NCBI GenBank assembly: GCA_036517335.1
Contig: DATDWX010000027.1
Span: 24,192 to 88,191 of the forward strand
From: Minisyncoccota bacterium
GTDB lineage: Bacteria > Patescibacteriota > Minisyncoccia > Phycocordibacterales > UBA2100
Length of the DNA: 64,000 nucleotides
Direction: 5' to 3'
Positions 7,157 to 55,909 of the stretch are shown here, piece by piece; position 1 is the first letter of the stretch, and the number at the start of each line of letters is the position of its first letter. A program made the translations under genes and the position numbers. Under the pieces are notes generated by a model that did no database searches, was not told the origin of the DNA, and saw only the letters and a list, made by a program, of their open reading frames with translations.

Positions 7157-7225
7157 ATATGAGCGCATTCTAGTAGAGTCTTGCCCTCCACACAATCTTT
7201 ATATATTGGTCGACTGCCGAAGGCA

Positions 7226-7295
7226 GGGTACACCCCGTTAGAGGCCTCGCGAAATGTGCACGCGTTTTGCCATGAAGGCCTCTAACGGGGTACAC
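7226..7295. repeat. palindromic element: inverted copies of GGTACACCCCGTTAGAGGCC separated by a 24-bp spacer
   Basis: Arms at 7226-7248 and 7274-7295 are reverse complements. The CCCGTTAGAGGC core recurs at 20678, 35632/35899 and 53515/53619. Confidence 0.7.
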
Positions 7296-7303
7296 TGCTG
7301 CCC

Positions 7304-7726
7304 ATGCCGGACATAGTGATACAACATGCGAAAAAACATCAGCAACTCGGGCGATTCCTGATCGCTGGTGGATCGGCATTCGCCGTCAATATCGTCGTGC
7401 TCTATACGCTCACGGACATTTTGCACGTCTACTACCTCATCTCTACAGTGATCGCCTTCATGGTCTCATTCTGTGTGAGTTTCATTCTCCAAAAATTCTG
7501 GACTTTCAGAGACCATTCGCGCGACCAGATGCATGTGCAAATGTCTCTTTACCTGGGCATGCAGCTCGGCAATCTCGTATTGAACGCCGCGCTCATGTAT
7601 GCGTTCGTGGAGTATCTCCACCTCTGGTACATTCTCTCGCAAGCGATCATTTCGATCGGACTCGCCATCACGAGCTTCTTTATCAACAGAGCCTATATCT
7701 TCAAGCAGCAAGATAGTGAACTCTAA
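7304..7726 (+). CDS. GtrA-family small membrane protein (polysaccharide synthesis, flippase-associated)
   Basis: 140 aa with four hydrophobic helices. FLIAGGSAFAVNIVVLY is typical of GtrA-like proteins. Confidence 0.65.
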   Translation: MPDIVIQHAKKHQQLGRFLIAGGSAFAVNIVVLYTLTDILHVYYLISTVIAFMVSFCVSFILQKFWTFRDHSRDQMHVQMSLYLGMQLGNLVLNAALMYAFVEYLHLWYILSQAIISIGLAITSFFINRAYIFKQQDSEL

Positions 7727-18334: not shown

Positions 18335-19768
18335 ATGATCAAGGATATTGTCGAGACGACAGATTCGCAGCGGGAGGCCGATGTGTGCATTGTAGGAGCG
18401 GGAGCTGCAGGCATCCTCCTTGCGCTCGAATTGATGGAGGCGAGCCGCTCCGTCATCCTCCTTGAAGGGGGCGGTCTCACGCAAGATCTGCACGCCCAGG
18501 CGCTATACGACCTCGAATCACCGCTTCTTCCCGTGGGTAAGGATTCACGCGTGCGCGTATTTGGCGGCACCACAAGCGTATGGACAGGCGGATGGAAGCT
18601 GCTTGAGCGAGACGACCTCACGGTGCGCGATTGGATGCCGCTCTCCGGGTGGCCCGTGTCGTACGCCGAAATGGAGTTGCTTTACGACCGCGCGGCGAGG
18701 CGCGTGTGCGGACCCTCCACCGTCGACATTGCCGCCGTTACCCATGCGCAAGCCGCAGTGGATTTTTCGAAGCGCATTACCGAGAGCGGCGCGCTCGAGA
18801 CGACCGTGCTGTGGGAGCTGCCGGAGCGAGCGCGAGATTTCGGCAAGGTATTTCGGGCTGCGCTCGAAGCATCGCCTGCCGTACGGATCTTTCTCAACGC
18901 CAATGTGACGCGCATAGAGCGAGATGTCTCTCGTGTACGCTCCCTGCATATCAAGACATTGGAGGGCAGGGATTTCAATGTCAAAGCTTCCAAGTATGTG
19001 ATCGCCTGCGGTGGGATCGAGAACGCCCGTCTTCTCCTTGCTTCCGGCATTGGAAATGAACATGATCAGGTGGGGCGTTACTACATGGATCATCCGAAGG
19101 GCACGGTGGGCGCTATTGCCGCCGACGACTACTCTCTCTACAGCCACGTCATCACGCAGCAGCGGCGCGAGGCGGGCACGCTTATCACCGGCTTTCAGCT
19201 CTCCCCCGCTTTTCGCAGTGCGCGTAAGCTTCCTAATTGCTACGTGCAGATGCGTCCCATCTACGGGAAGCAATCCTTACCGAGTCGTGCAATGCACAAA
19301 TTCTTCGGCGTGCCGTACCCTGTCCGCGGCGTGCGTTTGCGTACCTTTATGGAGCAGGTGCCCTCGCCGCGCAGCAGGGTGGTACTCGGGGATGCGAGGG
19401 ATGCATTTGGTAATCCGCTTGCGAGAGTGGAGTGGTCGCTTTCGGAGCTCGACAAAGAAGGCGCGCGTGCGCTGCACCTTGTGGTGCAAGGCGAACTTGC
19501 GCGCGCGGGGCTCGGCACCCTCACCTCTGAAATCGTGGACCACCCCGAGCCGTGGCCCATTACCAAGGACGCATCGCACCATATGGGCACGACGCGCATG
19601 GGCGCTGATCCGCACACGTCGGTAGTCGACCCCGACTGCCGTGTACACGGAGTGAACAACCTCTTCATCGCCGGAAGCTCGGTATTTCCGACAGGAGGAA
19701 ATGCGAATCCCACGGCCACTATTCTTGCGCTCGCCGTGCGCTTGGCCGATCACATTAAAACAATATGA
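18335..19768 (+). CDS. GMC-family FAD-dependent oxidoreductase
   Basis: DVCIVGAGAAGILLALEL at the N-terminus and the C-terminal HHMGTTRMGADP...NLFIAGSSVFPTGGNANPT GMC signature. Confidence 0.75.
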   Translation: MIKDIVETTDSQREADVCIVGAGAAGILLALELMEASRSVILLEGGGLTQDLHAQALYDLESPLLPVGKDSRVRVFGGTTSVWTGGWKLLERDDLTVRDWMPLSGWPVSYAEMELLYDRAARRVCGPSTVDIAAVTHAQAAVDFSKRITESGALETTVLWELPERARDFGKVFRAALEASPAVRIFLNANVTRIERDVSRVRSLHIKTLEGRDFNVKASKYVIACGGIENARLLLASGIGNEHDQVGRYYMDHPKGTVGAIAADDYSLYSHVITQQRREAGTLITGFQLSPAFRSARKLPNCYVQMRPIYGKQSLPSRAMHKFFGVPYPVRGVRLRTFMEQVPSPRSRVVLGDARDAFGNPLARVEWSLSELDKEGARALHLVVQGELARAGLGTLTSEIVDHPEPWPITKDASHHMGTTRMGADPHTSVVDPDCRVHGVNNLFIAGSSVFPTGGNANPTATILALAVRLADHIKTI

Positions 19769-20874
19769 TGGAAAAACTACGCCGATCTCGCGTGCTCGTT
19801 TTTACCGCAGGCGATCACATCACCGCGAGCTCAAAATATCGAGCATTTCTTCTTGGCTCATACCTCACCGAAACGCGTCCGGATATAGAGTGGAAGCTAG
19901 TCGAGCCCTCCACGAAGATCCTGTCGTCGCTGGGCTATCTCACGCAAATGTGCGCTGTATTCTCTCAAGCGCGGCGGCTGTTTTGGCGACCGGAGCACGA
20001 TGTCGTCTTTATACAACGCGCCATCTACAACAAATTCGTTTTCGCCTTGCTTATCTTGCAAAATATTCTCCGCATCCGCCCAAGTATTTTTGATTTTGAT
20101 GATGCCATATTCCGACATTCGGGCTTCAAGACGCGCCTCTTGTGTAAGACGTCCAGTGCCGTGATCGTGGGGAGCCACTTTCTGCAGGAATATGCGCAGC
20201 GCTACAGCAAGCGTGTCATCCTCGTCCCAACGTGCATCAGATTTTCCGACTACGCGTCAATACCCAAGATGGGAGATAGATCTACATTCACAATCGGTTG
20301 GATCGGGAATGGGCCAGCGTCGCTGCCCGAGCTGCGCTTCATGGCCGAGGCGCTGAAGGAGCTGAATACTCGCACCCAGGCGTTCCGCCTTCTCCTCATT
20401 GGTCATCAGGGGCATCCGGAGATCCCGGGACTCTTCGAGTTTCTTCCTGCCGAGCGCAAAGAGCTCATAGATTATGTGAATGCAAAGACAGACGCTGATC
20501 TGATTCCGTATCTCGCGAAGATGGATATTGGTCTCATGCCACTCGAAGAAAGCGAGTGGAACAGGGGCAAGTGCGCATTCAAGGCTATTCAATATATGGC
20601 TACTGGCGCGGCGGTTGTGGCGAGCCCAGTGGGTGAGAATCCTGTTCTCATCACGCATCGCGTTACGGGAATGCTTGCCCCGTTAGAGGCTTCGCCTCTA
20701 ACGGGGCTTGCCGCGACCAAAGAGGAGTGGGCGTCGTGCATACAAGAGCTCATGCAAGATCCCGCGCTCCGGCAGCGCATCACTGTAGCCGCCCGCGACC
20801 ACGTCCGGGCGCACTATTCTTTCGAATCCCAGATCCCGAAACTGACCGAAGTCATCGACTCGCTTATCCATTGA
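19765..20874 (+). CDS. glycosyltransferase (GT1/GT4-like, GT-B fold)
   Basis: C-terminal AIQYMATGAAVVASPVGE motif. It contains an in-frame 29-bp palindromic insertion (see the repeat at 20678). Confidence 0.6.
   Translation: MMEKLRRSRVLVFTAGDHITASSKYRAFLLGSYLTETRPDIEWKLVEPSTKILSSLGYLTQMCAVFSQARRLFWRPEHDVVFIQRAIYNKFVFALLILQNILRIRPSIFDFDDAIFRHSGFKTRLLCKTSSAVIVGSHFLQEYAQRYSKRVILVPTCIRFSDYASIPKMGDRSTFTIGWIGNGPASLPELRFMAEALKELNTRTQAFRLLLIGHQGHPEIPGLFEFLPAERKELIDYVNAKTDADLIPYLAKMDIGLMPLEESEWNRGKCAFKAIQYMATGAAVVASPVGENPVLITHRVTGMLAPLEASPLTGLAATKEEWASCIQELMQDPALRQRITVAARDHVRAHYSFESQIPKLTEVIDSLIH
20678..20706. repeat. 29-bp perfect palindrome CCCCGTTAGAGGC-TTC-GCCTCTAACGGGG inside the glycosyltransferase coding sequence, flanked by the direct repeat GCTTG/CTTGCC
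   Basis: Read directly from the sequence. It has the same core as the other CCCGTTAGAGGC elements and encodes PLEASPLTG in frame. Confidence 0.75.
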
Positions 20875-20943: not shown

Positions 20944-23900
20944 ATGAATAGAGTCCCTAAGCGGGCTTTCGTTGTCGTCCTTGCTACGGCTGTTATTGTT
21001 GGTAATGCGGTGTCGGCGTATGCGGTGGTTATTCCTCCCACTGCACCCGGCCAATCCGTTTTCACCATCGGCAATCAAACGCCAAGAGTTGACGGCTCCA
21101 CGGGCGCACTTACAAGGCACATTTCTCTCGATATTCCGCCGGGGCGAAGCGGATTGCAACCTGATATTTCGCTCGATTACAACAGTCAGAACACCGAGCA
21201 AGAAAGCCTGGTCGGGTATGGTTGGACGCTATCGATCCCGTATATCCAAAGGCTCAACAAGACCGGTTCGCAGAACATGTATGGTCCAAATGCGTACTTC
21301 ACGTCCTCCTTCGACGGTGAGCTCGCAATTTCAGATACAGGGACTTCCACCTCTATGACCGTTTTGGTGGTGGCCGGTGGCGGAGGCGGCGGTAGTGATG
21401 GCGGAGGTGGAGGTGGGGGTGGAGTCAAAACAGTCACTATTCCTATTACAACGCCCCAAGCATATTCAGTCACTGTCGGAAGTGGGGGCACTGCCGGATC
21501 TGCCGGTGCCGGAACGCACGGTGGTCAGGGCGGGGATTCAGTTTTCGACAGTACCACTGCGCACGGGGGCGGATATGGCGCTGCACCAAATGGCGACACA
21601 AACCATCCGGCTGCTGGTGGGAGTGGCGGGGGTGCGGGGTATGGCAACAGCACCTCCGTCCCTACAGCAGGTGGTGCGGGTACTGCTGGCGAGGGAAATA
21701 ATGGCGGTGGCGGTTTGAATGGAGTGTCATCGTATGGTGCCAGCGGAGGCGGTGGTGGGGCAGGTGCTGCGGGCGCTGATTCTCCAGGGGGTGACACAGG
21801 GGCAGGTGCGGGAGGCACCGGTACTTCATCATCAATAAATGGCACTGCGACGTATTATGGAGGTGGAGGGGGAGGCGGTGGATTGCAAGGTGCCTACGGT
21901 GGAAATGGAGGCAACGGCGGCGGAGGCGGTGGCGCAAGTGGAAGTGGCACGCAGGGCACCGGCGGTAGCAACGGGGGCGCAAATGGCACGAACAGTTCAA
22001 ATGGTACCGGTGGAGCCGGCGGTACAAACTCCGGCGGAGGCGGAGGCGGAGGAGGTTTTCAATCAGACTACGGACCGGGCGGCGCGGGTGGTTCGGGCAT
22101 CGTCATTATCTCGGCTCCTGTCGGAGCGATCACATCCGCAACGGGCGGAACTCATACGACCGCGGGAGACAATGATGTATGGACGTTCACCGCTAGTGGC
22201 ACATTTACCATTGTCAGTGTTGCCGACGGCGCTTCAGATTCGCCAGCTTCATCAACCTATCGCGCCCGGGTAGACGACGGATCATTTCGCTCATACTCAT
22301 ATGCCACCTCGAGCAATTCATGGACGATGTACGATAAGAAGGGGACTCGATACCTTTTTGGTGCGAGCAGTCAGGGTCAGCAGAGCGCCACCACAAGTCC
22401 GAGCAGTGTATATAAATGGATGCTCGAAGAAGTACGCGACACCAACGACAATTATATTTCCTATACATACTTGAAAGATGAGAATCAGATATATCCGTAC
22501 CAAATCAAGTACACGGGCAATGGCGTTTCCGACGGTCCGAGTACTATTACAATTGCCACATCCACCAGAAGCGACCAGGCGGTAAGCTATAAATCCGGAT
22601 TCAAGGTCTTGACCGCGTATCGCATCTCCCAAATTACCGCGACTTTCAATAGTACAAACGTGCGCCAGTGGGCACTTGGATACGGTACCGGCAACAATGG
22701 CTCGCGCTCACTTCTCACAAGCATTCAAGAAACCGGCTGGAATGACGCAGGCACTCAAACCACGCTCCCTGCCGCGACCTTCGAGTATGTCAGCACCACC
22801 ACGCCGTTCTACGGGCCCAATCTTGGTACCAATGTTGTAGGTTCTGCGTACGTCGTTGCTGATTCCGAGGGGGACGGCATAAATGGCATCAGCATATTGT
22901 ATCTGGACGGGGGGAGTAATAAAGGAAAGATCATAAGTCCTGACGGCAACACCACAACAAATTTGACATCCCCAGCGCCACCTGAAGAGTGGTCGAATAG
23001 TGGGGGAGGGGCCCCGCTACCCACCTATTTGGCTGATGAGCGCGGCGTGCGCTATCTCGACGTTAACGCTGACGGGAAGCCAGACGTGGTGCGCGGCATC
23101 AAAGATGATTATGCGGCCACGACCACCAAGCAAATATATGAAAATACGTATGCCGCAACATCAACCTACGGCTGGACCAATGGGATCTCATGGAGTGGAA
23201 CCATTCCGGAATTCGCATACAAAAGCGATTCCACGCATAGTTGGACGACGGGTATTTTCGGGGATATCAATGGCGATGGCTTGCCCGATTATGAAGAGTC
23301 GCTCAACAACACCGGCGGCGCCATTACCAACGGCGCATATTTGGGCAATGGTACTGCATGGGATGCTGCTACCACCACCATATTCGCAGCCATGAATGTC
23401 ATGCCGGATTCTGTAAGCGGCCCGACAGTCTACAATCCACAACTGATCGATATCAACGGCGACAGTCTCGCCGATTGGGTGTCTTCGGACAGTTCTAATA
23501 CCTACGTACAGCTCAACACCGGGACGGGCTGGGTATACGACACCCGCTGGATCATCGCCACTTCCACGCTCTATCATTCCACTTCACCAGGCAACACCTA
23601 CTACGACCGTGGCATTCGGTTTATGGATATGAACGGCGATGGGCTGCCCGATTTTGTGCGTGCTTATGCCAACGCCCCCTTTACCGGTAGTGTCACCGAG
23701 CCAGAAATTGAGGTGGCAACGATAAGCTTGGTGCTTCTCAATACCGGGTCCGGATGGGCTACCAGTACTGCATACACTCTCGCCCCGATCGCATCCCCGT
23801 ATCATGATTCCGGCACGTCGTGGACAAGCGGGGTGATCGTCTACAACGAATATGCAAATTGGATAGGCAATGGCCAGATGCAACAAGACGTGCTTGCGAC

Positions 23901-26900
23901 CACGACCTCATCCAAGGGGGGTAGTACGACGGTTTCCTACGGATTGACGACGCAAACGAGCGCGAATACACAGCTGCCCTATGCACTGCTGACGGTCAAT
24001 TCAATTACAGATCACGATGGTCGCGGGAGCAATGAACGAACCGATTACGCATATTCGGGTGGGTTGCAATACCTTCCTTCCAATGTGTACGACCGCAAAT
24101 TTGCAGGCTTTGCAAGCACCACCGAAACGCGCCCCGACAAAACGACTGTCCGGTATTACCATCAAGGCACTCTTATGCAAACCGCGCTCGGCGAGCAGAG
24201 CAACGGATACGCCCACATCAATCATCCGTTCCGCGAAGATGTGTTTACTCCCAGCGGTACATCGGTACAAAAGACCTTCTATCGGTGGGACCCGTATACC
24301 AATGCGAGCAGCACACTCATTCTTCTCGGTAGGAAGTTGGAGCAAAACTATGCGAGCAATGGCACGCACCGCGATAAGGATACGGATTATGCATACGCGA
24401 CCAGTACGGGAGATATAATACGCATCAACGATTTCGGCGAAGTGAGCGGCAATTCCAACGGCACATTCAGCGACATTTCAGGCGATTCCCGCACTACGCG
24501 CTTTACCTATGCCGCGAGCAGCTCGGTATTCATGAGTGTCCCTATCCAAAAGACATTGCTCGACAACAGTTCCGCTACGAGTACTGATACGAAACTCTAT
24601 TACGACTCGCTTGCATTTGGGTCGGTGGGGCGTGGGAATCAGACAATGCAGAAAGATTGGATCTCGGGTGATACCTACGCTTCTACCACAAGAGCCTACA
24701 ACACATACGGCCTCGCGAGCAGCTCGACGGATAGGGGTGGCAACCTCACTTCCTACGTGTACGACAGCTTCAACCTATATCCCGCCACGAGCACCAATGC
24801 GTCTTCGCAATCCACACGCTTCACCTACAATTATTCAAACGGCAAGACAGCCACGACGACAGATCCAAATACCGCAATAGCCAAAAATATGTACGATGGC
24901 GTCGGACGACTAACAGAAATGTATCAATCCGACACCTCTAATCCGAGCACACTCGTTACCAAGGCCACCTACACGTTCACCGACAGCACGTCCACACCCT
25001 CTTTGATACGAGTTACGCAATACCTCAACTCCGCGACGACGACCGATACCTACACCTTTTATGACGGTCTGAACCGCCCCATTCAGGAGCGCAAATCCAC
25101 AGAGACCGCCGGCACCTACGCGACCACTGATCGCATCTACCACAGGGTGGGCAACCTGGCCTCGACAACGCTTCCGTATTTCTCATCGGGCACCTCGCTT
25201 ACGACAGCCACGAGTACCACCGCCCTCTATACCGAATTTCTCTACGATCCACTCGGTCGTCCCACGAAGGTCTCCAACTCTGTGGGCAGCACCACGAATA
25301 CATACGGGAAGTGGACGACCACTACGGTTGATCCAAACGGCAGTATCAAAGAGTATCTACTTGATGCGTACGGCAATCTCTCGCAGGTCGTGGAGCACGC
25401 TACCTCCACTGCGACCACGACGTATACATACGACGCTGCGGGCAACCTAGCATTGATCACCGATGCAGCATCGAGCACACGCGCTTTCACCTACGATGGA
25501 TTGGGGAGACGCACGGGCGCGCAGGATCTCCACGCGAGCGGCGATGCAACCTTCGGATCATGGTCGTACAGCTACGACGATGTAGGCAACCTTACGTCGC
25601 AGACCGATCCCAAGGCCCAGGTCATCACGCACACATTCGACGCGCTCAATCGCATGGTAACGGAAGCTTTGAGCGGCTCCGGAGTGCAGATCACCAACAC
25701 CTATGATTCATGTACCTACGGCGTCGGGCGACTCTGCAGCGCATCGAGTACTGCTGCACTCAATGCCTATGAATACGATGTGCTCGGCCGCACCAGCATT
25801 GCCACCAGTACCGTCAACGGTACTGGATATGCGACGGTGTATGGATATGATCGCCAGGGCAACCAAACATCCATTACATACCCGGACAAACGAGAAGTGA
25901 GCTACGTCTACAACGCCGCGGGTCTGATGAACTCGGTCAGTACCAAGCCGGTGGGCGGCGCATACTCGTCCGTTCTATCTGCCACGACGTACGCACCGGA
26001 TGGTAAACCTCTTACGAAACTCTTCGGCAACGGCGTCGAAACCACCTATACCTACGATCCCCTTCTGCAGTATCGTCTAACCCGGATGTTGACGGGCACC
26101 AATGCGGGCACGTCCACGGAAATCGTGCCGCTGGTGAGCGACCCGGTGGCGTACTGGAATCTGGATGAATCAAACGGGGTTGCCTACGATGCCATTGCCT
26201 CCAACGACCTCACCAACAACAATAGTGTTTCCTACGCGACCGGTACGATAAGCAATGCCGCTACCTTCGTAGCTGCCAATTCGCAATCGCTCCAGAAACT
26301 CACCGCTTCTGGCTTACCCACAGGTAGTGAGTCCATCGCCGCGTGGGTGAAATTCACGTCGCTTCCTGTAAGTACATGGTATGGCATCGTGGAGCAGGGC
26401 AACGCCGCGACGTCTTCAAAATTTGGCCTCACGATCACCGATGATCCGGTAGGGGCAGACAACCTCTACTCGTTGGCCATTGATCACTTCGGCGGCACCA
26501 ATGTGTATAGCGATGCCTGGTCTGGCGTGGCGACCGGCACATGGTATCACGTGGCCGCTACCTATGATGGGACCAATTTTCGCTGGTATGTAAACGGATC
26601 GCAGCTCGGCGCGGCAAAGGGCGCAGGCACGCAGACGACCAGCGGCGCGCAGATCGTGGTGGGAGCCATGATAGACAGCTCCTTGGAAAACTTCCTCAAC
26701 GGTTCCGTGGATGAGGTCGGGGTGTGGGACAACGTCTTGACGCAAAGCGAACTCACGGCGCTCTACAACGCGGGCGCGGGAGAGGCATATCCCTTCGGCA
26801 CTACCACGGTCAGCACGTATGGCTACGCCAACCTCATTCAGGATTTGAATTACACGTATGATGCGGTGGGCAACATTACGAATGTCACGAATAATTCCAC

Positions 26901-33888: not shown

Positions 33889-35631
33889 ATGCAGCGCGTT
33901 CGTCATCTTTGGGGTCTGTACCAGAAGGCCTTCGGGGCCTATACCTGGCAAATAGTGCTTATCATGGTGCTCGCGTTTGTCTCGAGCATTGTGGAGGGTA
34001 TCGGGATAAGCGCCATTATTCCGATATTTAGCTTCGTCGGCGGCACGCCGGGCGCTGCGGGCGACACCATCTCGCACATCATCGCGGGGATGTTCTCTTT
34101 TTTCCACATTACCTACACTTTCCGGATGCTGCTCATCTTCATCGGAGTCCTCTTCGTGCTCCGGATCTTCTTTATATTCGGCATCCAGTATGTGACGGGC
34201 TACATCATTTACAACTACGAGCGTGATCTGCGTCTGCGACTTTTCGGCGGGACGCTGGAGAGCCGTTGGTCGTACCTCTCGCAGCAGAAGGTCGGCAATT
34301 TGGAGCAGCTCCTCACTACGAATACCAGCAATGCCTCACAATTCTTCGGCAATATTTCCGCCTCCGCTCTCATATGCACGAAAGTCTTGATCTACATTGT
34401 GATCGCGATCAACATTTCGTGGTGGATCGCGCTGTTTAGTTTGCTCGCCGGATTCTTGATGGTCTTCGTGTTGCGCCCGATCTTCTATAGAGATCGCGCG
34501 ATAGCGACCGACGCGGAGCGCACCAATCGCTCGCTCGCACATTTCGTCAGCGAGCATGTCATCGGCATGAAGGCGATCAAGGCGATGGCGCTTGAAGAGC
34601 CGGTCAAAGCGCGCGGACGTGAGTTCTTCGACCTGACGCGTACGCTGAATCTGCGCGCCCGAGTGATGGGCGGCTATGTACAGGTACTAGTGCAAAGCGC
34701 GGGCATCGTTTTCGTCGCCATCACCTTCGCTATCATGTATCGTTCGCCGGGCTTCACGCTCGCTTCCTTTGCGGTCATCGTGTACGCCATCAATCAGATA
34801 TTCGCGCAGATACAGTCCGGCCAAAATCAGCTCCACACCATTGTGCGGCTCCTTCCCTATATTGGCGAAGCGTTTGCATATGGCGATCGCACGAAGGCGA
34901 ATGCAGAGGCGCGTGGCGGGGGCGCTCCGTTTGCTCTCCAGCAGAGCATTGAATTTCGCCACGTATCGTTTACATACCCAGAGCGCGGGAGTGTCTTGTC
35001 TGATGCGGATTTCCAGATCCACAAGGGTGAGCTACTTGGTATAGTGGGTCCCTCCGGCGCGGGCAAATCCACGCTTGCCGATTTGCTCCTGCGGCTTATC
35101 GAACCCACGAGTGGCATGATCGTCGTCGATGGGCGCGATGTGCAAGAAATATCAGTCGAGGCGTGGAGGTCGCATGTAGGCTATGTGGCGCAGGATGCGG
35201 TCTTGCTCAATGATACGATCGAGCAGAATATTCGCTTCTACAATGCGAAGGTGGGAATGGCGGATGTGGTCGCGGCGGCAAAGCTCGCGAATATTCACGA
35301 ATTCATCGAGACGCTGCCGCGGGGATACGAGACGGTGATCGGGGATCGTGGCATCCTCCTCTCCGGAGGCCAGCGTCAGCGGGTGGCGCTTGCGCGCGTC
35401 TTGGCGCGCAAGCCAGAGCTTCTCGTTTTGGACGAAGCCACCAGCTCGCTCGACCAAGAATCCGAACGCGCCATCCAAGCGGCGGTCGAAGGACTGCGCG
35501 GCGGCATCACGATCGTCGTCATCGCGCACCGGCTCTCGACCATCGAAGGAGCTGATCGTTTCATCGGGATCAAAGATGGAGTTGTTTCCGAATTGTCTCG
35601 CGACGAGGTGTTTGCAACCCGTTCCGTATGA
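33889..35631 (+). CDS. ABC exporter, fused permease and ATPase
   Basis: Six N-terminal TM helices, then Walker A GPSGAGKST, signature LSGGQRQRVALARVL, and Walker B LLVLDEATSSLD. Start taken at the internal Met MQRVRHLWGLY. Confidence 0.8.
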   Translation: MQRVRHLWGLYQKAFGAYTWQIVLIMVLAFVSSIVEGIGISAIIPIFSFVGGTPGAAGDTISHIIAGMFSFFHITYTFRMLLIFIGVLFVLRIFFIFGIQYVTGYIIYNYERDLRLRLFGGTLESRWSYLSQQKVGNLEQLLTTNTSNASQFFGNISASALICTKVLIYIVIAINISWWIALFSLLAGFLMVFVLRPIFYRDRAIATDAERTNRSLAHFVSEHVIGMKAIKAMALEEPVKARGREFFDLTRTLNLRARVMGGYVQVLVQSAGIVFVAITFAIMYRSPGFTLASFAVIVYAINQIFAQIQSGQNQLHTIVRLLPYIGEAFAYGDRTKANAEARGGGAPFALQQSIEFRHVSFTYPERGSVLSDADFQIHKGELLGIVGPSGAGKSTLADLLLRLIEPTSGMIVVDGRDVQEISVEAWRSHVGYVAQDAVLLNDTIEQNIRFYNAKVGMADVVAAAKLANIHEFIETLPRGYETVIGDRGILLSGGQRQRVALARVLARKPELLVLDEATSSLDQESERAIQAAVEGLRGGITIVVIAHRLSTIEGADRFIGIKDGVVSELSRDEVFATRSV

Positions 35632-35912
35632 ATCCCGTTAGAGATGACAAAAGTTGGTATACCTACGTACTTCGGAGTTTGAAGGACGGTAATTGGTACA
35701 CCGGTTTTACGAACGATCTACGGAAGCGCTTCAAGCAGCACAACGACGGGCTTACGTTCTCGACCAAAGGACGTCGTCCGTTAGAGGTGATATATTACGA
35801 AATGTGTAGAAATGAGCATGATGCTCGGTCGAGGGAATTATTTCTTAAATCTGGTATGGGAAAGCGTTATTTGCAAAACCGCTTGAAGCGCTTCCTATCT
35901 CTAACGGGATGA
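35628..35912 (+). CDS. GIY-YIG nuclease-domain protein (94 aa)
   Basis: SWYTYVLRSLKDGNWYTGFTNDLRKRFKQHN is the GIY-x10-YIG motif with the conserved R and N. The ATG overlaps the ABC transporter's TGA, and its own TGA overlaps the next gene's ATG. Confidence 0.75.
   Translation: MNPVRDDKSWYTYVLRSLKDGNWYTGFTNDLRKRFKQHNDGLTFSTKGRRPLEVIYYEMCRNEHDARSRELFLKSGMGKRYLQNRLKRFLSLTG
35632..35910 (+). mobile_element. small element bounded by 12-bp terminal inverted repeats ATCCCGTTAGAG / CTCTAACGGGAT, carrying the GIY-YIG gene and inserted at an ATGA gene junction
   Basis: TIRs at 35632-35643 and 35899-35910. The same termini and the same flanking ATGA...GAAATT context recur at 53515-53631. Confidence 0.6.
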
Positions 35913-37312
35913 AATTATTCTTGATCCAACTCGGGGAGATGGTGCCGGCGCAAGTAGATGTGGCGCGCATGCTCAAGAAAAATCACGAGATCCAATACTG
36001 GGTGCGGATGGAAAATCATTTCGCGGTCTACAGAGAGGAATTCGAGGGGACGTTCTTCCAGGATTATCTCGATGCGATTCAAGGGATTCCGGCTCGTGGG
36101 ATCGATCTGTACAAGTACGAGCCGTGGAGCGCGCACGATATCGCCGCATACGGGGATATCGAATCCGAGTACATGACCATGGCCGACAAATTGCATCCTC
36201 ATTGGTCTGTGAATCAGCGGAAGGATTTGTATTTCGATCTGCTTCGATACTGGGGCGGCATATTGGATGAATTCAAGCCCGATTGCATCGTTATCCTTGG
36301 GGTTCCGCATCACGAGTATGATTTCGTTTTGTACAAAATTGCGAAGCGCCGAGGTATACGTACGATCATCCTAGAGAACACGTTCAGAGGAGGTCGCTAC
36401 GTGTTGTATGAGGACTATACGGTTGGAAGCGAAAAATTTCTGATAGGGAATGGAGCGCGGGAGACAACACTTGAACAGCTCTCCCCTGAAATGCGTGCCT
36501 ATTTTGAACGCGTATCGCTGGGAGAGAACCCGGCGCCGCCCTACGTACAGGCATTCCACGAACGTCGTACGACCATTAACGCTATTCGCCGTTGGAATCA
36601 CGCCATCGTGCGATTCATTAAAGATCGCTCGCTCTTCGAACGTGCGATCTTGAAGGTGCTCAAGATGATGAAGCCATCTCTTAAGGATGAGCACCATGCA
36701 AACGAAAAAGCACCCAATTTCGATAATTCCTACGCGTATTTTCCCCTGCACTACCAGCCAGAATTTACTACGAGTCCCGCCGGAGGGCTCTATGTAGATC
36801 AAATGCACGCCATTAAAACGATTGCCGCGGCACTTCCAGAGGGATGGGAGTTGTATGTTAAAGAACACCCCGGCCAACTCGCCGTGCACGGCGGCAATTT
36901 TACGCCTGCACGCTACAGCGGCTTCTATTCAGCAATTGTCGCTATCCCGCATGTGCGACTTGTTCCGCTTGAGACAAATACGTACAAACTCATTGATCGA
37001 GCTCGGACGACCGCAACGATTGCGGGCACTGCCGGATGGGAGAGTATCTTGCGCGGCAAAACTGCACTCGTTTTGGGTTATCCGTGGTATTTGCAAGCGC
37101 CGGGCGTGCTTCGCGTATCGAGCGTCCCCGAATGTCGTAATGCTTTTGAAAAAATCACAGGTGGGTTTGTACCGCGGCAATCCGATATTCTCAGCTACCT
37201 CGATCGCGTCGACCAGGCGAGTTTGTACGGGGACTTACTTTATATAAAGACCGACACTCCGCAGTATGCGCAGGATATGTACACGGCTATCGAGGAGATG
37301 CTTGCATCTTGA
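35909..37312 (+). CDS. capsule polysaccharide biosynthesis protein (Capsule_synth / KpsS-KpsC-LipA family-like)
   Basis: YFPLHYQPEFTTSPAGGLYVDQMHAIKTIAAALPEGWELYVKEHPGQL is the family hallmark. Confidence 0.6.
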   Translation: MKLFLIQLGEMVPAQVDVARMLKKNHEIQYWVRMENHFAVYREEFEGTFFQDYLDAIQGIPARGIDLYKYEPWSAHDIAAYGDIESEYMTMADKLHPHWSVNQRKDLYFDLLRYWGGILDEFKPDCIVILGVPHHEYDFVLYKIAKRRGIRTIILENTFRGGRYVLYEDYTVGSEKFLIGNGARETTLEQLSPEMRAYFERVSLGENPAPPYVQAFHERRTTINAIRRWNHAIVRFIKDRSLFERAILKVLKMMKPSLKDEHHANEKAPNFDNSYAYFPLHYQPEFTTSPAGGLYVDQMHAIKTIAAALPEGWELYVKEHPGQLAVHGGNFTPARYSGFYSAIVAIPHVRLVPLETNTYKLIDRARTTATIAGTAGWESILRGKTALVLGYPWYLQAPGVLRVSSVPECRNAFEKITGGFVPRQSDILSYLDRVDQASLYGDLLYIKTDTPQYAQDMYTAIEEMLAS

Positions 37313-45360: not shown

Positions 45361-46647
45361 ATGCAAACACGGAGGGCAGTTCTTGCGATCAACGGCGGCA
45401 AACCCGTTTTCAACGGGAAGCTTCCGGAGATACACAATCATGACCGAAAGGAAGTGGCCGCTGCTACACGCGTCATTATGCACGGTCCGCTCTCGGGATT
45501 CGTCGGGGTGGCGGGGAAGCGTTTCCTTGGCGGAAGGGAGGTGCGCGCGCTTGAAGCGTCATTCGCAAAAAAGTTCAAAGTGAAGCATGCGGTGTCCTTC
45601 AATTCGGCGACCACTGCGCTGCATGCCGCCATTGTCGCGCTCGAGATCGGACCGGGCGATGAGGTGATCGTGCCGCCATATTCGATGTCGGCTTCTGCTA
45701 CCGCAATTCTTGCGAATGGCGCCGTGCCGATATTTGCGGATATCGACGAGCGCACGTTTTGTATCGACCCCAAGTCCGTTCGGCGGCGCATCACAAAAAA
45801 CACGAAGGCGATCATGGTCGTTAATCTCTATGGGCAAGCCGCGGATTTCACCGAGCTTTTGCAAATAGCCAAACAACGCAAACTCAAGCTCATTGAAGAC
45901 AACGCGCAATCGCCCGGCGCGAAATGGAAGGGGAAATTTGCGGGCACCATCGGCGACGTAGGTGTTTTTAGCTTCAACGTCCACAAGACAATGCAGACAG
46001 GCGAGGGCGGCATGCTCGTGACCAACAGCGCGCGCGCAGCACAGCGCGCGCAGCTCTGTCGCAATCACGGGGAAGCGGTCGTAGATCAGATGCCCCAGTA
46101 CGATGCTGGCCCGATTTTTGGTAGCAACTATCGCATGACAGAGCTCATCGCGGCGATCGCTCGTATCCAGATCACCCGCCTCGATCACCTGACCAGAAAG
46201 CGCCAGGCACTCGCCGCGCATCTCACAAAGAGGCTCGCAAAAATTCCGGGTATTACGCCGCCTTTCGTCCATCCAGGCAACACACATGTCTACTACCGCT
46301 ACACAATCAAAGTAAATCCAAAGATCCTCGGTATTTCACGCGATACACTCGCAGAGGCGATGGCAGCCGAGGGATTCCCCATTTCTAAGGGCTACGTGAG
46401 GCCAATCCATCTCCTACCGGTCTTCCAATCCCGCCGAGCGTTCAACAATACTGAATTTCCGTTCAAGAATAGCTACTACGACGGCAACCCTGATTATTCC
46501 AAAGGGACATGCCCGGTGGTGGAGCGATTGGAAGAGCAAGAGATCACACTCACTGACATCTGTCAGCACCCAAATACAAAAAAGCATACTGATCTCTTTG
46601 TACAAGCGCTCCTGAAAGTGCTCGCACACAAAGATGAACTCCGCTAA
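45361..46647 (+). CDS. DegT/DnrJ/EryC1-family sugar aminotransferase (PseC/LegC-like)
   Basis: FSFNVHKTMQTGEGGML, the PLP-Lys motif. Start at MQTRRAVLAINGGKPVF, immediately after the preceding stop. Confidence 0.7.
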   Translation: MQTRRAVLAINGGKPVFNGKLPEIHNHDRKEVAAATRVIMHGPLSGFVGVAGKRFLGGREVRALEASFAKKFKVKHAVSFNSATTALHAAIVALEIGPGDEVIVPPYSMSASATAILANGAVPIFADIDERTFCIDPKSVRRRITKNTKAIMVVNLYGQAADFTELLQIAKQRKLKLIEDNAQSPGAKWKGKFAGTIGDVGVFSFNVHKTMQTGEGGMLVTNSARAAQRAQLCRNHGEAVVDQMPQYDAGPIFGSNYRMTELIAAIARIQITRLDHLTRKRQALAAHLTKRLAKIPGITPPFVHPGNTHVYYRYTIKVNPKILGISRDTLAEAMAAEGFPISKGYVRPIHLLPVFQSRRAFNNTEFPFKNSYYDGNPDYSKGTCPVVERLEEQEITLTDICQHPNTKKHTDLFVQALLKVLAHKDELR

Positions 46648-47695
46648 AAAGATCTTGTTCAGCGCCAACGACCCGGGCGGGTGGAATGCCATCCTACCGG
46701 TCGTGCGCGCACTCGTTGAAAGAGGCGACGTCGCGCAAGGTATTCTAACCGGCCCCGCCCTCGATCAATTTCGTTCTCTTGACTCCTCATCCCAATACTT
46801 CGTTATAAAACGAAGTATTGGGATCATCGATGGCGCGCAATTTTCTGACAATGATCTTGCGCGAGAGATTGCAGCATTCAAACCGGATGTGTATCTCGCC
46901 GCTTCCTCTATTGGAAATTCTATAGACAAACGGATATTCAAATTATTGAGAAATATCACATCCGTGTACGTGGTGGATTTTTGGTCGCACTACGCGCACC
47001 GATTCGTAGAGAAGCAGCAAGACTTACGTCACATGCCCACGCGCATCTGCGTCATCGATGAGCGGATGAAAAAGATGATGCTCGAAGAGAGATTTCCGGA
47101 AGAGCGCATCACGATTACGGGCAATCCACATTTTGATCATTTTGCCGATGCCATCACAAGCGACCACGAAGATAACACCCGCGCCGTATTTATTTCGCAA
47201 CCCATCAAGCAGGATAAAAAGCACGCAGGGTATGCCGACCGAGGGTTCGACGAGTTTGGAACATTCGAAAGCGTCATCCGCTGCCTGCCCGATGATCTGC
47301 ATCTTTCAATACGCCTTCATCCGCGCGAGAAGCGAGCAAAGTTCAACGCATACCTGAATGATCGGATCACGGTGGGAGACGAAGCAACATTGGAAGAAGC
47401 GCTCTCGAAAGCCGGACTCGTCATCGGCATGTTCAGCCCTGTTCTCATGCAATCCGCGCTCGCGGGCAAACCAACCATCAGCTACCAGCCGGGCAATGCC
47501 GAAGATCCCTTGCCGACCAACCCAGTCGGTATCACCAAGCTTGCGAGGAACGAGAGCGAATTGCGAGCACTCATAAAAAAATATCAAGACTGGCAATTTC
47601 CAAAATCGAAGGAAAAAGTCGAGAATATCTGGCCCAAAGGCGCGACAGAGCGCGTTGTCGCCGTCATTGATGAGATAATCACAGGCAAGGTATGA
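46634..47695 (+). CDS. GT28-C/PseG-like UDP-sugar hydrolase or glycosyltransferase
   Basis: Weak resemblance of the C-terminal GLVIGMFSPVLMQSALAGKPTISYQP to MurG/PseG C-domains. Placement inside the nonulosonic acid cassette supports the call. Confidence 0.35.
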   Translation: MNSAKKILFSANDPGGWNAILPVVRALVERGDVAQGILTGPALDQFRSLDSSSQYFVIKRSIGIIDGAQFSDNDLAREIAAFKPDVYLAASSIGNSIDKRIFKLLRNITSVYVVDFWSHYAHRFVEKQQDLRHMPTRICVIDERMKKMMLEERFPEERITITGNPHFDHFADAITSDHEDNTRAVFISQPIKQDKKHAGYADRGFDEFGTFESVIRCLPDDLHLSIRLHPREKRAKFNAYLNDRITVGDEATLEEALSKAGLVIGMFSPVLMQSALAGKPTISYQPGNAEDPLPTNPVGITKLARNESELRALIKKYQDWQFPKSKEKVENIWPKGATERVVAVIDEIITGKV

Positions 47696-49460: not shown

Positions 49461-49883
49461 TTACTGACTGGGCATCTTGAAATTGGGGTCCCCATGATCG
49501 CCCCTGCCCATCCCAAGGTTCTCGTGCACGATGGGTTTCTCACAATCGTCCCATTTTTTCGTGAGCATGCTCACGAGATTTACGTCGGTGATGCCATACA
49601 ATACGTGCACTGCGCCGGCGGGGATGTGGATGCAATCGCCCTTGCTCACATAGAGAAACGACTCTTTATCTTTCTCTTTCGTCACGATTACGCCCGTGCC
49701 GTCGGTAATGACGTAGTATTCGTCGAATTCCGGATGGTAGTGATTGCCTCGCACCTTCCCCTTGTTGAGAAAGAGGAAGTTGAACTCCACGATGGGCTTA
49801 TCGGGGTAAAAGGTAAAAATACCACCCCTTCCGTCCCGAACGGTGTCGAGATTGCACGCAGGATCAATTTTCCGTATTTTCAT
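49461..49883 (-). CDS. cupin-fold protein, WxcM/FdtA-like sugar ketoisomerase candidate
   Basis: 140 aa; RGNHYHPEFDEYYVITDGTGVIV...GDCIHIPAGAVH is the cupin two-His motif. Confidence 0.45.
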   Translation of the reverse strand: MKIRKIDPACNLDTVRDGRGGIFTFYPDKPIVEFNFLFLNKGKVRGNHYHPEFDEYYVITDGTGVIVTKEKDKESFLYVSKGDCIHIPAGAVHVLYGITDVNLVSMLTKKWDDCEKPIVHENLGMGRGDHGDPNFKMPSQ

Positions 49884-53436: not shown

Positions 53437-53514
53437 CATGATTTTCATGCCAAGCGGCTACCGATCTAGGGCGTTTGCTTCATACAAATGCTAGTGCTAG
53501 CATTGCAACAATGA

Positions 53515-53631
53515 ATCCCGTTAGAGGCCGCGGTCGCTCAGCGAATATCATTTACATGCATGTGGTCGAAATTACAAGAACGTCTAATCGCAGCTTGCGG
53601 GTAGCAGACCGCGACCTGCCTCTAACGGGAT
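53515..53631 (+). repeat. MITE-like, gene-less derivative of the GIY-YIG element (TIRs ATCCCGTTAGAGGC / GCCTCTAACGGGAT), encoding only a 40-aa ORF MNPVR...LPLTG
   Basis: It has the same 12-bp termini and the same ATGA / GGGATGAAATT junction context as 35632-35910. Its stop TGA overlaps the ATG of the downstream gene. Confidence 0.6.
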
Positions 53632-55909
53632 GAAATTTCTTGAGCAGACATTGCGCTCTATCGTCTTGTGTGGCGTTTTTGCCCTCCCAGTGGTCGCGCT
53701 TATCGTCGCCAACGAGCTTTTCTTCCCTTACATTACGGGCAAAAATTTTGCCTTCCGGATCATTGTCGAGATCATCACGGGCGCGTGGCTCGCCCTTGCG
53801 CTCGTCGTACCGAAGTGGCGCCCACGGCGCAGCTGGATTTTGGCGAGCTTTGCACTCTTTATATTCATAATGGCGCTGGCGGATGCGCTGGGCGCGTACC
53901 CGTTTAAGAGTTTTTGGAGCAACTACGAACGCATGGACGGCTTCATAACGATCGCGCATACGTTTGTGTACCTCGTGGTTCTGACCGCCGTGATGCAAAG
54001 CGAAAATCTTTGGCGCCGTTTGTTCCAATGGTCGCTCGTGGTTTCGGTATTTTTGAGCGTGCTCGGATTGCTGCAAGTAGCAGGTGTGCTCGCGCTTGGC
54101 TCCGGCGGCACGGGGCTCACGGGTCGTGTTGATGCGACGTTCGGCAATCCAATCTATTTTGCCGCCTACATGCTCTTCCATGTCTTCATCGGTATTCTGC
54201 TTTGGTATCAGATGTGGCAAGTACGCGGCAAAGGAAATAGACTCACCCCCTCTATATTTTACGGTTTTGTGATCGCGCTTGATACTGTGGCGCTCCTCCT
54301 CACCGGCACACGCGGCACGATGCTCGGCCTCATCGGCGGCGCATTTCTCACGCTCGTACTGCTCTCGATTGTCCCCGAGGCGCGTCGCTTGCGGCAGGTG
54401 ACTGCGATCGCTCTTGTAGCCCTGATCATCGGAGGCGGGGTGTTGTGGTCTGTGCGTGAAAGCGCGTTCATTCAGCGCATCGCTTTTTTGAACCGTCTCG
54501 CCTCGATCTCTCTGACTGACAACACGACGAAAGCACGCTTTTTCAACATGGGTATGGCTTGGCAGGGGGTAAAGGAGCGACCGCTCCTCGGCTGGGGGCA
54601 GGAGAACTACGCGGTCGTTTTCGACAAGTATTACGATCCACGAATGTACGGGCAAGAGCAGTGGTTTGATCGTGTGCACAATATCATCTTTGACTGGTGG
54701 GTTGCAGGAGGTTTTCTCGGACTTCTCGCCTACATCTCTATCTTTGTCGCAGCACTCTGGGCACTGTGGCGACCGAGCGTCGAGCGAGGAAGTACTGAAG
54801 CAAGCATGCTGAATGTGCGCAGAAGTCCTTCGGGTGTGGCGACCTTCACACACCCCGAGCGTAGCATTTTGACCGGACTGCTCGCCGCCTACACGGTGCA
54901 CAACATGACCGTCTTCGACAATGTGACGAGCTACATCCTCTTCGGAACGATTTTGGGCTACATTGCATACCGCGAGGCAGTGGCGCAAAGCGCGCACTCG
55001 ATTTTTGAGAAAGAATTTTTACCACGCGGCGCGCTCTCGATCGTGGCTGCCCTCGCAGCACTCGTCGTGTGGGGAGCAGCGTGGAGTATCAATACACACG
55101 CCTTCGCGGAGAACGAAAAAATCCTTGCCGCGTTGCAGCAGCGATCAGGTGGTCCCGCACAGAATCTCGCACTTTTCAAAGAGGCCATTAGCTACGGTAC
55201 CTATGGCGATCAAGAGGCACGTGAGCAACTCGCGCAGGTAGCAGCGCAGATCGCGGGAGCAGATGTGCCCGCCGACCTCAAAGCGCAATTTCGGGAGACC
55301 GCGGTACACGAACTTGATCTTCAGGCCGCGCAATCGCCCCTCGACGCACGCTTCCCGCTCTTTGCCGCGATGGTGCTTGGCGCGCACGGTGATTACGCCG
55401 CTGCAGCGACAAAATTGGAGCGCGCTCACGAGCTTTCGCCAAAGAAGCAAACGATACTGTTTGAGTTGGCCCAAAATGCAGGGCTGCGCGGCGATGTAAA
55501 CGCATCTCTCCAATATTTCAAGACGGCCTTTGAGCTCGAACCCGAGTATCTAAACGCGCGCATCTACTATGCCTCGGCATTGATCCGTGCGGGCAAAGAT
55601 GCCGACGCAGACGCCGTGCTTGCACCCATCATCCCCACGGGGGAGGCGGCGGACACACACATCACCGGCGCGTACGTTGCTCGCAAACAATTTGGTAAAC
55701 TGATCCCCATCTGGCAGGCGCGCATCGCCGTGTCTCCATCCGACGCGCAGGCGTATTTCACCCTAGCCGCTGCCTACTTCGAGTCTGGTGATACTGCGCA
55801 TGCGATTGCGACACTGGAGAAAGCAGGATCCCTCGACCCGGCCGTGAAAGAGCAGGCAGACAAGTATATTTTGGATATTCGGAGCGGGGTACTTAAGCCG
55901 GGGCAGTAA
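53630..55909 (+). CDS. Wzy_C-family (O-antigen ligase / O-oligosaccharyltransferase-like) membrane protein with C-terminal TPR repeats
   Basis: About 400-aa polytopic N-terminal region with ...GTRGTMLGLIGG... and the periplasmic loop typical of Wzy_C. The C-terminal 300 aa are Ala-rich TPR-like helices. Confidence 0.6.
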   Translation: MKFLEQTLRSIVLCGVFALPVVALIVANELFFPYITGKNFAFRIIVEIITGAWLALALVVPKWRPRRSWILASFALFIFIMALADALGAYPFKSFWSNYERMDGFITIAHTFVYLVVLTAVMQSENLWRRLFQWSLVVSVFLSVLGLLQVAGVLALGSGGTGLTGRVDATFGNPIYFAAYMLFHVFIGILLWYQMWQVRGKGNRLTPSIFYGFVIALDTVALLLTGTRGTMLGLIGGAFLTLVLLSIVPEARRLRQVTAIALVALIIGGGVLWSVRESAFIQRIAFLNRLASISLTDNTTKARFFNMGMAWQGVKERPLLGWGQENYAVVFDKYYDPRMYGQEQWFDRVHNIIFDWWVAGGFLGLLAYISIFVAALWALWRPSVERGSTEASMLNVRRSPSGVATFTHPERSILTGLLAAYTVHNMTVFDNVTSYILFGTILGYIAYREAVAQSAHSIFEKEFLPRGALSIVAALAALVVWGAAWSINTHAFAENEKILAALQQRSGGPAQNLALFKEAISYGTYGDQEAREQLAQVAAQIAGADVPADLKAQFRETAVHELDLQAAQSPLDARFPLFAAMVLGAHGDYAAAATKLERAHELSPKKQTILFELAQNAGLRGDVNASLQYFKTAFELEPEYLNARIYYASALIRAGKDADADAVLAPIIPTGEAADTHITGAYVARKQFGKLIPIWQARIAVSPSDAQAYFTLAAAYFESGDTAHAIATLEKAGSLDPAVKEQADKYILDIRSGVLKPGQ

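Follow-up and report, generated by a model that had tools for sequence, protein, structure and literature searches.

A gene-less hairpin element on the start codon of a Wzy_C-like gene: a candidate member of a family of tiny mobile elements associated with a GIY-YIG nuclease in Patescibacteria

Among the described small GIY-YIG nucleases, SsnA (94 aa) binds a hairpin repeat and cuts only single-stranded DNA (ssDNA), a few nucleotides upstream and on one strand only (PMC11893778). Hairpin repeats flank the ssnA gene, and this layout, similar to that of an insertion sequence (IS), was noted with mobility raised only as a hypothesis (Chenal et al., Nat Commun 2025, PMC11893778); the same study lists Rickettsia among the SRM-rich genera. 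In the Candidate Phyla Radiation (CPR), GIY-YIG open reading frames (ORFs) were found in non-intron inserts of rRNA genes and left unexplained (PMC11270868), and these inserts may be the same elements as those described here. We analyzed a stretch of 64,000 nucleotides from a Minisyncoccota bacterium of the Patescibacteria (contig DATDWX010000027.1; the whole stretch is hereafter called the window), which carries a gene-less hairpin element of 115 bp at 53516-53630 (+ strand) and a full-length element of 277 bp at 35633-35909 (+ strand), the latter encoding a 94-aa GIY-YIG nuclease between the same ends. Going by the names of the closest proteins, the source genome looks Paceibacterota/Kaiserbacteria-like. 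Our findings make it likely that 53516-53630 belongs, as a non-autonomous copy, to a large family of tiny hairpin-ended mobile elements of Patescibacteria, with a mechanism that we infer from sequence comparison.

Read from position 53511, the gene-less copy appears as ATGAA|TCCCGTTAGAGGC...GCCTCTAACGGGA|TGAAATTT. The left TGAA of a 4-bp flanking repeat (53512-53515, +) forms with A53511 the original start codon ATGAA; the left and right 13-bp terminal inverted repeats (TIRs) TCCCGTTAGAGGC and GCCTCTAACGGGA occupy 53516-53528 and 53618-53630 (both +); and the right TGAA (53631-53634, +) provides the TG that, together with A53630 (the last base of this T..A-type element), rebuilds the host ATG. 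As the initial annotation had claimed, ATG 53630 starts a Wzy_C-like gene, namely an O-antigen-ligase-like Wzy_C gene of 759 aa with TPR repeats (53630-55909, +), whose start codon is thus occupied by the element. The same annotation had given the TIRs about 20 bp, which stands insofar as 13 perfect bp are followed by 7 further pairs, but a 4-nt bulge in the right arm interrupts the stem: folding pairs the left extension CGCGGTC (53529-53535, +) with GACCGCG (53607-53613) in a right arm (53607-53617, +) that ends in the asymmetric bulge ACCT (53614-53617). When 53516-53630 is folded as ssDNA and compared with shuffles, z = -5.5 and -5.0 are obtained, one value per strand.

The termini and junctions are those of the GIY-YIG element, as previously reported: the left junction ATGAATCCCGTTAGAG (53511-53526) equals 35628-35643 over 16 nt and the right junction CTCTAACGGGATGAAAT (53620-53636) equals 35899-35915 over 17 nt. 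The core 9-mer CCGTTAGAG occurs 9 times in the window vs 0.45 expected, a number that 0/100 shuffles reach, and eight of the 9 matches combine into four inverted pairs, whereas the remaining one lies within the GIY-YIG gene. Alignment of 35628-35912 with 53511-53633 confirmed the sharing of an 11-nt core and the flanks, but the interiors are unrelated and cannot be aligned; the 89-nt interior of 53516-53630 matches neither the GIY-YIG gene nor anything else in ~1.7 Mb of fetched relatives. TIR positions 12-13 read GC in the 115-bp copy and AT in the GIY-YIG copy of the window, and the 22-25-nt ends of 53516-53630 recur in many gene-less copies of other genomes. The element had been described as an internally deleted, non-autonomous derivative: it is indeed a gene-less family member of the GIY-YIG element and was inserted, but the unrelated interior and the difference at positions 12-13 indicate that it is not a deletion of the neighboring GIY-YIG copy and belongs to a separate gene-less lineage.

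Judged by comparison with orthologues, copy 53516-53630 is an insertion, because orthologous Wzy_C genes start with ATGAA and carry no element. Indeed, the two nearest orthologues (70% and 64% identical) start with ATGAAG or ATGAAA with nothing in between, and relative to them the window has an extra 119 nt precisely between A and TGAA; their upstream motif TGCTAGCAT(T/G)G is retained in the window too, and in one more orthologue, which is syntenic, the spacer measures 83 nt vs 193 nt in the window. The element-less junction would read ...GCAACA|ATGAAATTTC. Note that TGCTAGCAT(T/G)G lies 10-16 nt before the Wzy_C start in three genomes (window 53490-53500, L255 1176-1191 and L256 1178-1190; such labels denote fetched loci carrying relatives) and may be a promoter or regulatory site. 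The window also holds an unoccupied ATGAA start codon (49879-49883, - strand), at which the 73%-identical orthologue in L098 has a 121-bp element. Besides this pair (L098 vs window 49883), occupied and empty sites were matched for L129 vs L083, L105 vs L042 and L087 vs L159, and all empty sites of these pairs read A-TGAA. In addition, stacks of two or three elements are spaced by exactly TGAA, and therefore the rebuilt site is hit again. In one three-element stack (L009), the middle element (6019-6154) has different ends, TCCCGTAGTAGAAAA...TTTTTCACTACGGGA, and there are therefore further TIR families, outside the searches made.

Gene-less copies also appear to multiply as such. Copies with similar interiors are located at different genes of one contig in L086 (100%), L098 (91%), L060 (84%) and L151 (83%), L191 holds four of them at different genes, and L038 has the window's own subtype twice, at separate gene starts. 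From these copy patterns, mobilization in trans is inferred as the probable mode of spread. Another possibility is that a full-length GIY-YIG element on the Wzy_C start lost its interior in place and never moved in the gene-less state. Intermediate, frame-shifted and degenerate copies that would suit such a decay are known (146-227 bp; L056, L037 and L109), at the rpiB start L111 has a copy of 283 bp, L072 one of 48 bp and L109 a full but degenerate one, and in other lineages gene-less copies share ~25 nt per side with full-length ends. We nevertheless regard an in-place remnant as unlikely here, since the 89-nt interior is unlike any GIY-YIG gene, the 22-25-nt ends, ACCT bulge included, are met again in gene-less copies at unrelated genes of many genomes (two such copies in L038), gene-less sizes cluster tightly at 115-123 bp, which is unexpected from random deletion, and near-identical gene-less pairs are found at different genes.

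The insertion reading is extended by the distribution of the family. The number of copies had been left to be counted, and further copies do exist, two more of them in the window and at least 120 loci in each of two scans. The genome scan used the pattern ATGAATCCCGTTAGAG with one genome per species and left the right flank and size unconstrained, and the metagenome-contig scan used the two TIR cores only, with a 73-103-nt gap and unconstrained flanks. The genome-scan loci belong nearly all to metagenome-assembled genomes of Patescibacteria from many lineages. In the size-unselected set, ~85 copies measure <=135 bp (with a sharp peak at 115-123 bp), 13 measure 146-227 bp, and ~17 (about 15%) are full-length copies of 274-283 bp with the nuclease ORF. 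The right flank is (A)TGAA in nearly all genome-scan copies, though it was absent from the search pattern, and in most of them the rebuilt ATG opens an ORF of >100 codons. Among the occupied starts are those of topA, ssb, rpiB, Wzy_C and other genes, which are unrelated and have nothing but ATGAA in common.

When flanks were left unbiased, two terminal types emerged. The T..A copies (72) show the consensus A-T-G/T-A/G-A | element | T-G-A/G-A/G and are located on start codons, with a downstream ORF of >=60 codons in 51/72, and the C..G copies (63) show [G/A]-T-N-N-A | element | T-N-N-A-[C/T] and lie mostly away from gene starts. The flanking 4-mer is exact in 74/135 of these copies. Inserts that stay in frame within genes account for 11/255 copies surveyed, in every one of which the length plus 4 is divisible by 3; ~1 in 10 C..G copies is such an insert. 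Other descriptions of the target were tried and set aside: a location of C..G copies on stop codons was ruled out (5/65), a 6-bp duplication with a 10-bp TIR was ruled out by the base after the right TGAA, which varies freely, and a 5-bp duplication with an asymmetric element was ruled out as a rule by L258, which reads ATGAA|C...G|TGAA. The base at -5 tends to match the right terminal base. Orienting the C..G copies by their CCT motif (described below), in order to link orientation with the flanking 4-mer, found most of them without the motif.

Our results further suggest that the two ends are selected as partners in a stem. Among 128 gene-less copies at gene starts, TIR positions 2-11 are almost invariant, and positions 12-13 take eight dinucleotides that are paired in 95% of these copies and in 12/12 full-length copies, before pairing drops to 31% at position 14. 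Compensatory changes were also seen at position 1, in L258 (a locus found via protein, not DNA), where T..A became C..G in ATGAA|C...G|TGAA and the host start becomes GTG, and at position 11, in L038 (GAA/TTC). Positions 12-13, which vary yet remain complementary, point to a DNA hairpin as the probable selected form. Mismatches of the G:T (5) and A:C (7) kinds are equally rare, with no RNA wobble signature, and a stem acting at the RNA level is disfavored by this lack of surplus of G:U-compatible mismatches. Conservation at the third codon position of the TIR codons was discarded as a circular argument, the loci having been chosen by TIR sequence. Beside the right TIR, an unpaired CCT is conserved in gene-less and full-length copies, and the element therefore has a direction; CCT-marked T..A copies have TGAA flanks in 72 cases and its complement in 3.

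The full-length element (277 bp, with TGAA at 35629-35632 and 35910-35913) reads ATGAA|TCCCGTTAGAGAT...ATCTCTAACGGGA|TGAAATTA from position 35628, and its rebuilt ATG 35909 opens a capsule-synthesis-like gene. Its ORF (35628-35912, +; 94 aa, MNPVRD...SLTG*) borrows ATGAA from the host: the first base of the element is the third of codon 2, its last base completes the terminal Gly codon, and it has neither a start codon nor a ribosome-binding site of its own. Its 13-bp inverted ends are thus the first and last codons of the gene (N-P-V-R-D / S-L-T-G). The protein belongs to the GIY-YIG superfamily and consists of this one domain only (Pfam PF01541, E 7.7e-16, 58.6 bits vs a cut-off of 22.6), and it is the only protein ever found between such ends. 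Of the best 120 protein homologues, 106 start with M-x-P-V-R-[D/E] and end with ...L-T-G, and 100 are exactly 94 aa long. Residue 2 (N, S, I or D) follows the flanking 4-mer (TGAA, TGAG, TGAT or TGGA), and therefore the start codon and the next two bases are those of the host. Moreover, TIR positions 12-13 are the codons of residues 6 and -4, and these residues therefore change together, D going with S, G with P and A with A.

In 26 homologues, Y24, R32 and E70 are invariant and Y11, Y13, H38 and N84 are kept in >=90%; catalytic roles may be assigned to the conserved Tyr, Arg, Glu and Asn by likeness to I-TevI. By sequence and by predicted fold (Foldseek, pLDDT 75), UPF0213 and the Slx1 nuclease domain are nearest, and the NCBIfam group I intron endonuclease model gave only 16 bits against a cut-off of 56. 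The nuclease shares its ends with the gene-less copies, yet it fits no known transposase class. Scanning IMG/VR for the nuclease gave no relatives and no sign of phage carriage, and a tblastn search of plasmids with the window nuclease matched only YazA-like genes. Two nuclease genes that are 98% identical lie <8 kb apart in L111. Some further repeats were observed within the GIY-YIG gene. A third CCGTTAGAG core (35778-35786, codons RRPLEV) lies in left-end orientation and would bound, with the right end, a sub-element of 134 bp; it may be due to chance, be left from a nested copy, or offer a way to form deletion derivatives. In a perfect 15-nt inverted repeat (35722-35736 / 35881-35895), each arm contains the palindrome GAAGCGCTTC and is translated with a K-R-F motif (LRKRFKQ in one, RLKRFL in the other). 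At a place matching this 15-nt repeat, near the right TIR, a longer hairpin (GGAAATC...GATTTCC) is present in many gene-less copies.

The reading frames across the gene-less copy follow from its ends. The mini-ORF of 40 codons (53511-53633, +) runs from the original host ATG to a TGA that overlaps the rebuilt ATG 53630, and its translation MNPVRGRGRSANIIYMHVVEITRTSNRSLRVADRDLPLTG (40 residues) is as initially read; the MNPVR and LTG ends that it was said to share with the GIY-YIG protein are TIR-encoded, and both follow automatically from the TIRs. Among 120 gene-less copies at gene starts, the interior is closed by a stop in the frame of the upstream ATG in 87 (72%) and stop-free in 33, vs 13 and 16 in the other two frames; this modest excess is possibly left over from coding ancestry or due to weak selection. 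An exact-product look-up found the 40-aa product recorded by no gene caller, and the mini-ORF is thus not a conserved feature. Since 72% of the frames are closed, the lengths of gene-less copies cover all three classes modulo 3 and the upstream ATG decays (often to ATT, in ~30% of flank-unbiased T..A copies, with the downstream ATG retained), the peptide MNPVR...LPLTG is a by-product of the element ends, with no evident function. Of the three frames, the right TIR closes one with TAA and another with TGA (together with the flanking repeat); the remaining one runs on into the host gene, and fusions to the host protein are present there (L013, L028, L089 and L095). With a stop in two frames and the host frame in the third, the right end therefore does not destroy the host gene.

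These relations to the host gene raise the question of domestication, in which the hairpins would serve the host (in transformation or recombination, or in translation control) and the nuclease would be a host factor. In Neisseria, NTS/SsnA modulates natural transformation and domestication of an IS-like unit has been proposed (PMC11893778), and in our case the stem takes in two bases of the rebuilt start codon, which could affect translation. A host role is, in our opinion, improbable against the patchy presence among orthologues, the stacks of up to three copies per start codon, the in-frame inserts in enzymes, the decaying copies, the loss of the upstream ATG noted above and the close nuclease pair of L111.

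We therefore return to a mobile hairpin element, whose cycle may be proposed as follows. The element would land in a host start codon, after its A and before TGAA, leaving TGAA on both sides; the host ATG and upstream translation signals would then drive the frame of the element, and its last A with the repeated TG would restore ATGAA for the host gene. The need of the full-length element for a host ATG is a direct selective reason for start-codon occupancy. The 277-bp unit would be the autonomous form, and gene-less copies keep just the ends and would presumably be moved by a nuclease encoded elsewhere in the genome. In ssDNA, the two ends would pair as a hairpin, which the nuclease, by analogy with Ssn nucleases, would recognize and cut at its foot beside TGAA, and host ligation or repair would complete excision and insertion. 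Two variants agree with the data: (i) cuts at N^TGAA in donor and target, staggered by 4 nt, after which the overhangs that match would be ligated, and (ii) a single-strand path like that of IS200/IS605, in which one TGAA would be that of the element and the other a required target. Each would account for the uniform 4-mer and for the fixed orientation, in which the element points along the gene. The 4-nt repeat may be a true duplication or an element-borne cleavage tetranucleotide, and a conventional duplication with later selection is a further possibility.

Several points weigh against a mobile element of this kind. GIY-YIG nucleases are hydrolytic enzymes, and no strand-transfer activity is known among them, so that the joining step would need another catalyst. 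An identical upstream methyltransferase is carried by 19 contigs, and all 10 places listed for it show the occupied spacing, with no insertion polymorphism seen within the source population. The flanking 4-mers are identical in only 42/72 T..A and 32/63 C..G flank-unbiased copies, and the sole GIY-YIG copy of the window differs from the 115-bp copy at TIR positions 12-13. The rpiB start, which holds a full-length copy in L111 and a mini copy in L072, illustrates that some gene-less copies may be in-place remnants, and the start-codon bias and fixed orientation could stem from selection after insertion instead of targeting.

Hairpin repeats mobilized by Y1 transposases are well known, and another enzyme (e.g., an IS200/IS605-type Y1, as RAYTs move REPs) could mobilize the hairpins with the GIY-YIG gene as cargo. 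A Y1_Tnp gene of the IS200/IS605 type (L255, 3659-4375) is located just downstream of an unoccupied Wzy_C orthologue, but none of the copies examined was seen to have a linked Y1 gene, in the 106 homologues mentioned above the nuclease begins and ends with codons that are the inverted ends, the 277-bp unit leaves room for nothing besides the nuclease, and IS200/IS605 elements have no flanking direct repeats, so we consider mobilization by such an enzyme very unlikely. Finally, an ordinary inverted repeat, terminator or leader of the Wzy_C gene arising from chance or local structure has the stem for it and nothing else, and can be practically dismissed in view of the excess of the core 9-mer, the hundreds of copies elsewhere, an Rfam search with no family match anywhere in the window, and a promoter and terminator scan around 53516-53630 that found nothing within the element and no terminator-like T-run after it.

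The other copies of the window are of the C..G type. The first (7233-7290, 58 bp, no strand assigned, TACA/TACA flanks) is intergenic, between the divergent genes 6218-7195 (-) and 7304-7726 (+). The second (20678-20706, 29 bp, no strand assigned, CTTG/CTTG flanks) makes, together with its repeat, an insert of 33 bp that keeps the frame (PLEASPLTGLA) and lies in the C-terminal part of the GT4 glycosyltransferase ORF 19765-20874. Separately, a perfect 36-bp palindrome (46789-46824, ATCCCAATACTTCGTT-ATAA-AACGAAGTATTGGGAT, with TCCC...GGGA termini) lies within ORF 46634-47695, whose frame stays open; possibly it represents a hairpin element from a family with other end sequences, and its length breaks the rule of length plus 4 divisible by 3. 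An unrelated inverted repeat (32950-33048, with 22-nt arms that are 86% complementary and separated by 55 nt) covers both the 3' end of ORF 31919-33022 and the spacer that precedes ORF 33065, and may be another repeat family or a terminator. The window also contains a 2929-aa ORF (20944-29733) with long glycine-rich stretches occurring twice and YD/RHS-like repeats.

Altogether, the mobility of GIY-YIG/hairpin pairs, a hypothesis in 2025, receives comparative support from empty sites, flanking repeats, stacks and multiplying gene-less lineages, in a compact unit suited to experiments. The element illustrates how a selfish sequence may be harmless and expressed at once, by taking a host start codon, returning an identical one and ending safely in three frames, and how DNA pairing constrains protein sequence (residues 6 and -4). 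It also affects the annotation of Patescibacteria, in which such elements give rise to start sites, spurious short ORFs, extended N termini and enzyme inserts of 11 aa, and a 94-aa nuclease reading a defined hairpin could become a tool for ssDNA handling. We also advance, with a confidence that falls somewhat short of even, a bolder interpretation, namely a minimal class of DNA transposon not recognized before: a 277-bp unit with a hydrolytic GIY-YIG nuclease as its sole product, expressed only on a host ATG. Such a unit would move as a DNA hairpin, one strand being cleaved next to a fixed tetranucleotide in a 'peel and paste' that needs no HUH enzyme, and would seed hundreds of hairpin derivatives on start codons and, in frame, inside genes across Patescibacteria. 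If true, this may explain the IS-like NTS-ssnA-NTS units and perhaps the Rickettsia palindromic elements.

Compared with known mobile elements, the family combines features of several. It shares with IS200/IS605 and REP/RAYT the use of DNA hairpins instead of a double-stranded site, many short non-autonomous copies, a fixed tetranucleotide at the cleavage point, and strand or orientation specificity. However, those systems rely on an HUH Y1 transposase with a covalent intermediate, whereas the Patescibacteria element has a GIY-YIG hydrolase; IS200/IS605 leave no direct repeat, whereas the same 4-mer stands on both sides here; and their hairpins are subterminal at each end, whereas the hairpin described here is made of the two termini together. 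Classical MITEs (miniature transposable elements with inverted repeats) such as Correia, ERIC and RUP (PMC10969869) are likewise short, non-coding and multi-copy, with TIRs, a short flanking repeat and ends shared with an autonomous partner, and 53516-53630 has TIRs, a flanking repeat, no functional coding, and multiple sites together with an empty one. In contrast, the partner of a classical MITE encodes a DDE transposase and the Patescibacteria partner encodes none, and unlike those of classical MITEs, the Patescibacteria ends co-vary to keep pairing, insert on start codons and have a fixed orientation; the terms 'nuclease' and 'start codon' are never used in that review (PMC10969869). Rickettsia palindromic elements, compared by their placement, are palindromic in-frame inserts in enzyme genes, as is 20678-20706, but 53516-53630 differs from them in sitting on a start codon and not in frame within a gene. 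Homing endonucleases (I-TevI, Seg) also place a GIY-YIG catalytic domain in a selfish element, but they have extra DNA-binding domains, recognize a single long site in a single gene and depend on homologous repair to spread, whereas the Patescibacteria nuclease has no extra domain and is found at many unrelated genes sharing only ATGAA.

As to the protein itself, UPF0213 (YazA/YhbQ; PDB 1zg2 and 1ywl) and the Slx1 nuclease domain are its closest relatives by sequence and fold, and its C-terminal helix LKSGMGKRYLKNRLKRFLSLTG does not align with them. In both loci examined (B. subtilis and Radiobacillus kanasensis), the yazA-type gene is located between trmNF (a tRNA methyltransferase) and rsmI. 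The nuclease is nearer to YazA/UPF0213 (hhalign E 6e-17, 44%) than to the NTS/SRM-flanked set (E 2.8e-12, 30%), a comparison that serves as a proxy for placement in cd10448.

The Ssn proteins are homologous to the Patescibacteria nuclease (BLASTP 33% over 64 aa, E 6e-9; hhalign E 2.8e-12), and the two systems resemble each other in a single-domain GIY-YIG protein of ~94 aa and a short multi-copy hairpin repeat that is directional and inverted around the gene. The gonococcal ssnA orthologue was recovered, with seven exact NTS repeats <=700 bp away. Both kinds of stem have a CCCG start after an A/T-rich lead, which is a weak resemblance, and the SRM motif HGTCWYN(0-2)YYVSBRHN(0-5)WNVSBRGN(0-2)RNCYNB matches 0/4 window elements, with one unrelated window match vs 0.4 expected. 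Note that a plasmid of Azospirillum lipoferum (AZO_p3; L265, 283-576) carries, between sufB and sufC, a GIY-YIG gene of the Ssn type that is bordered on each side by SRM hairpins in inverted orientation, which looks like an operon insertion and fits mobile Ssn units. A term search of the main text of PMC11893778 found none of 'duplication', 'start codon', 'Patescibacteria' and 'Candidatus', and in the open-access and bioRxiv literature no prior description of GIY-YIG transposons, CPR MITEs or start-codon-targeting elements was found besides PMC11893778 and PMC11270868; the literature searched likewise yielded no description of element ends lying within the ORF, of a start codon that is borrowed and then rebuilt, of flanking 4-mers, of stacks or of inserts in frame. 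Motif, protein scores and hairpin layout leave membership in the Ssn system unsupported. The layouts differ as follows: among the Proteobacterial homologues examined, Ssn genes have complete 28-nt hairpins 40-80 nt outside the ORF, whereas the Patescibacteria element has 13-nt half-sites inside the ORF and its two ends pair with each other. The pairing of a small GIY-YIG nuclease with hairpin repeats is a recently recognized kind of system, and we regard the Patescibacteria family as a variant of it.

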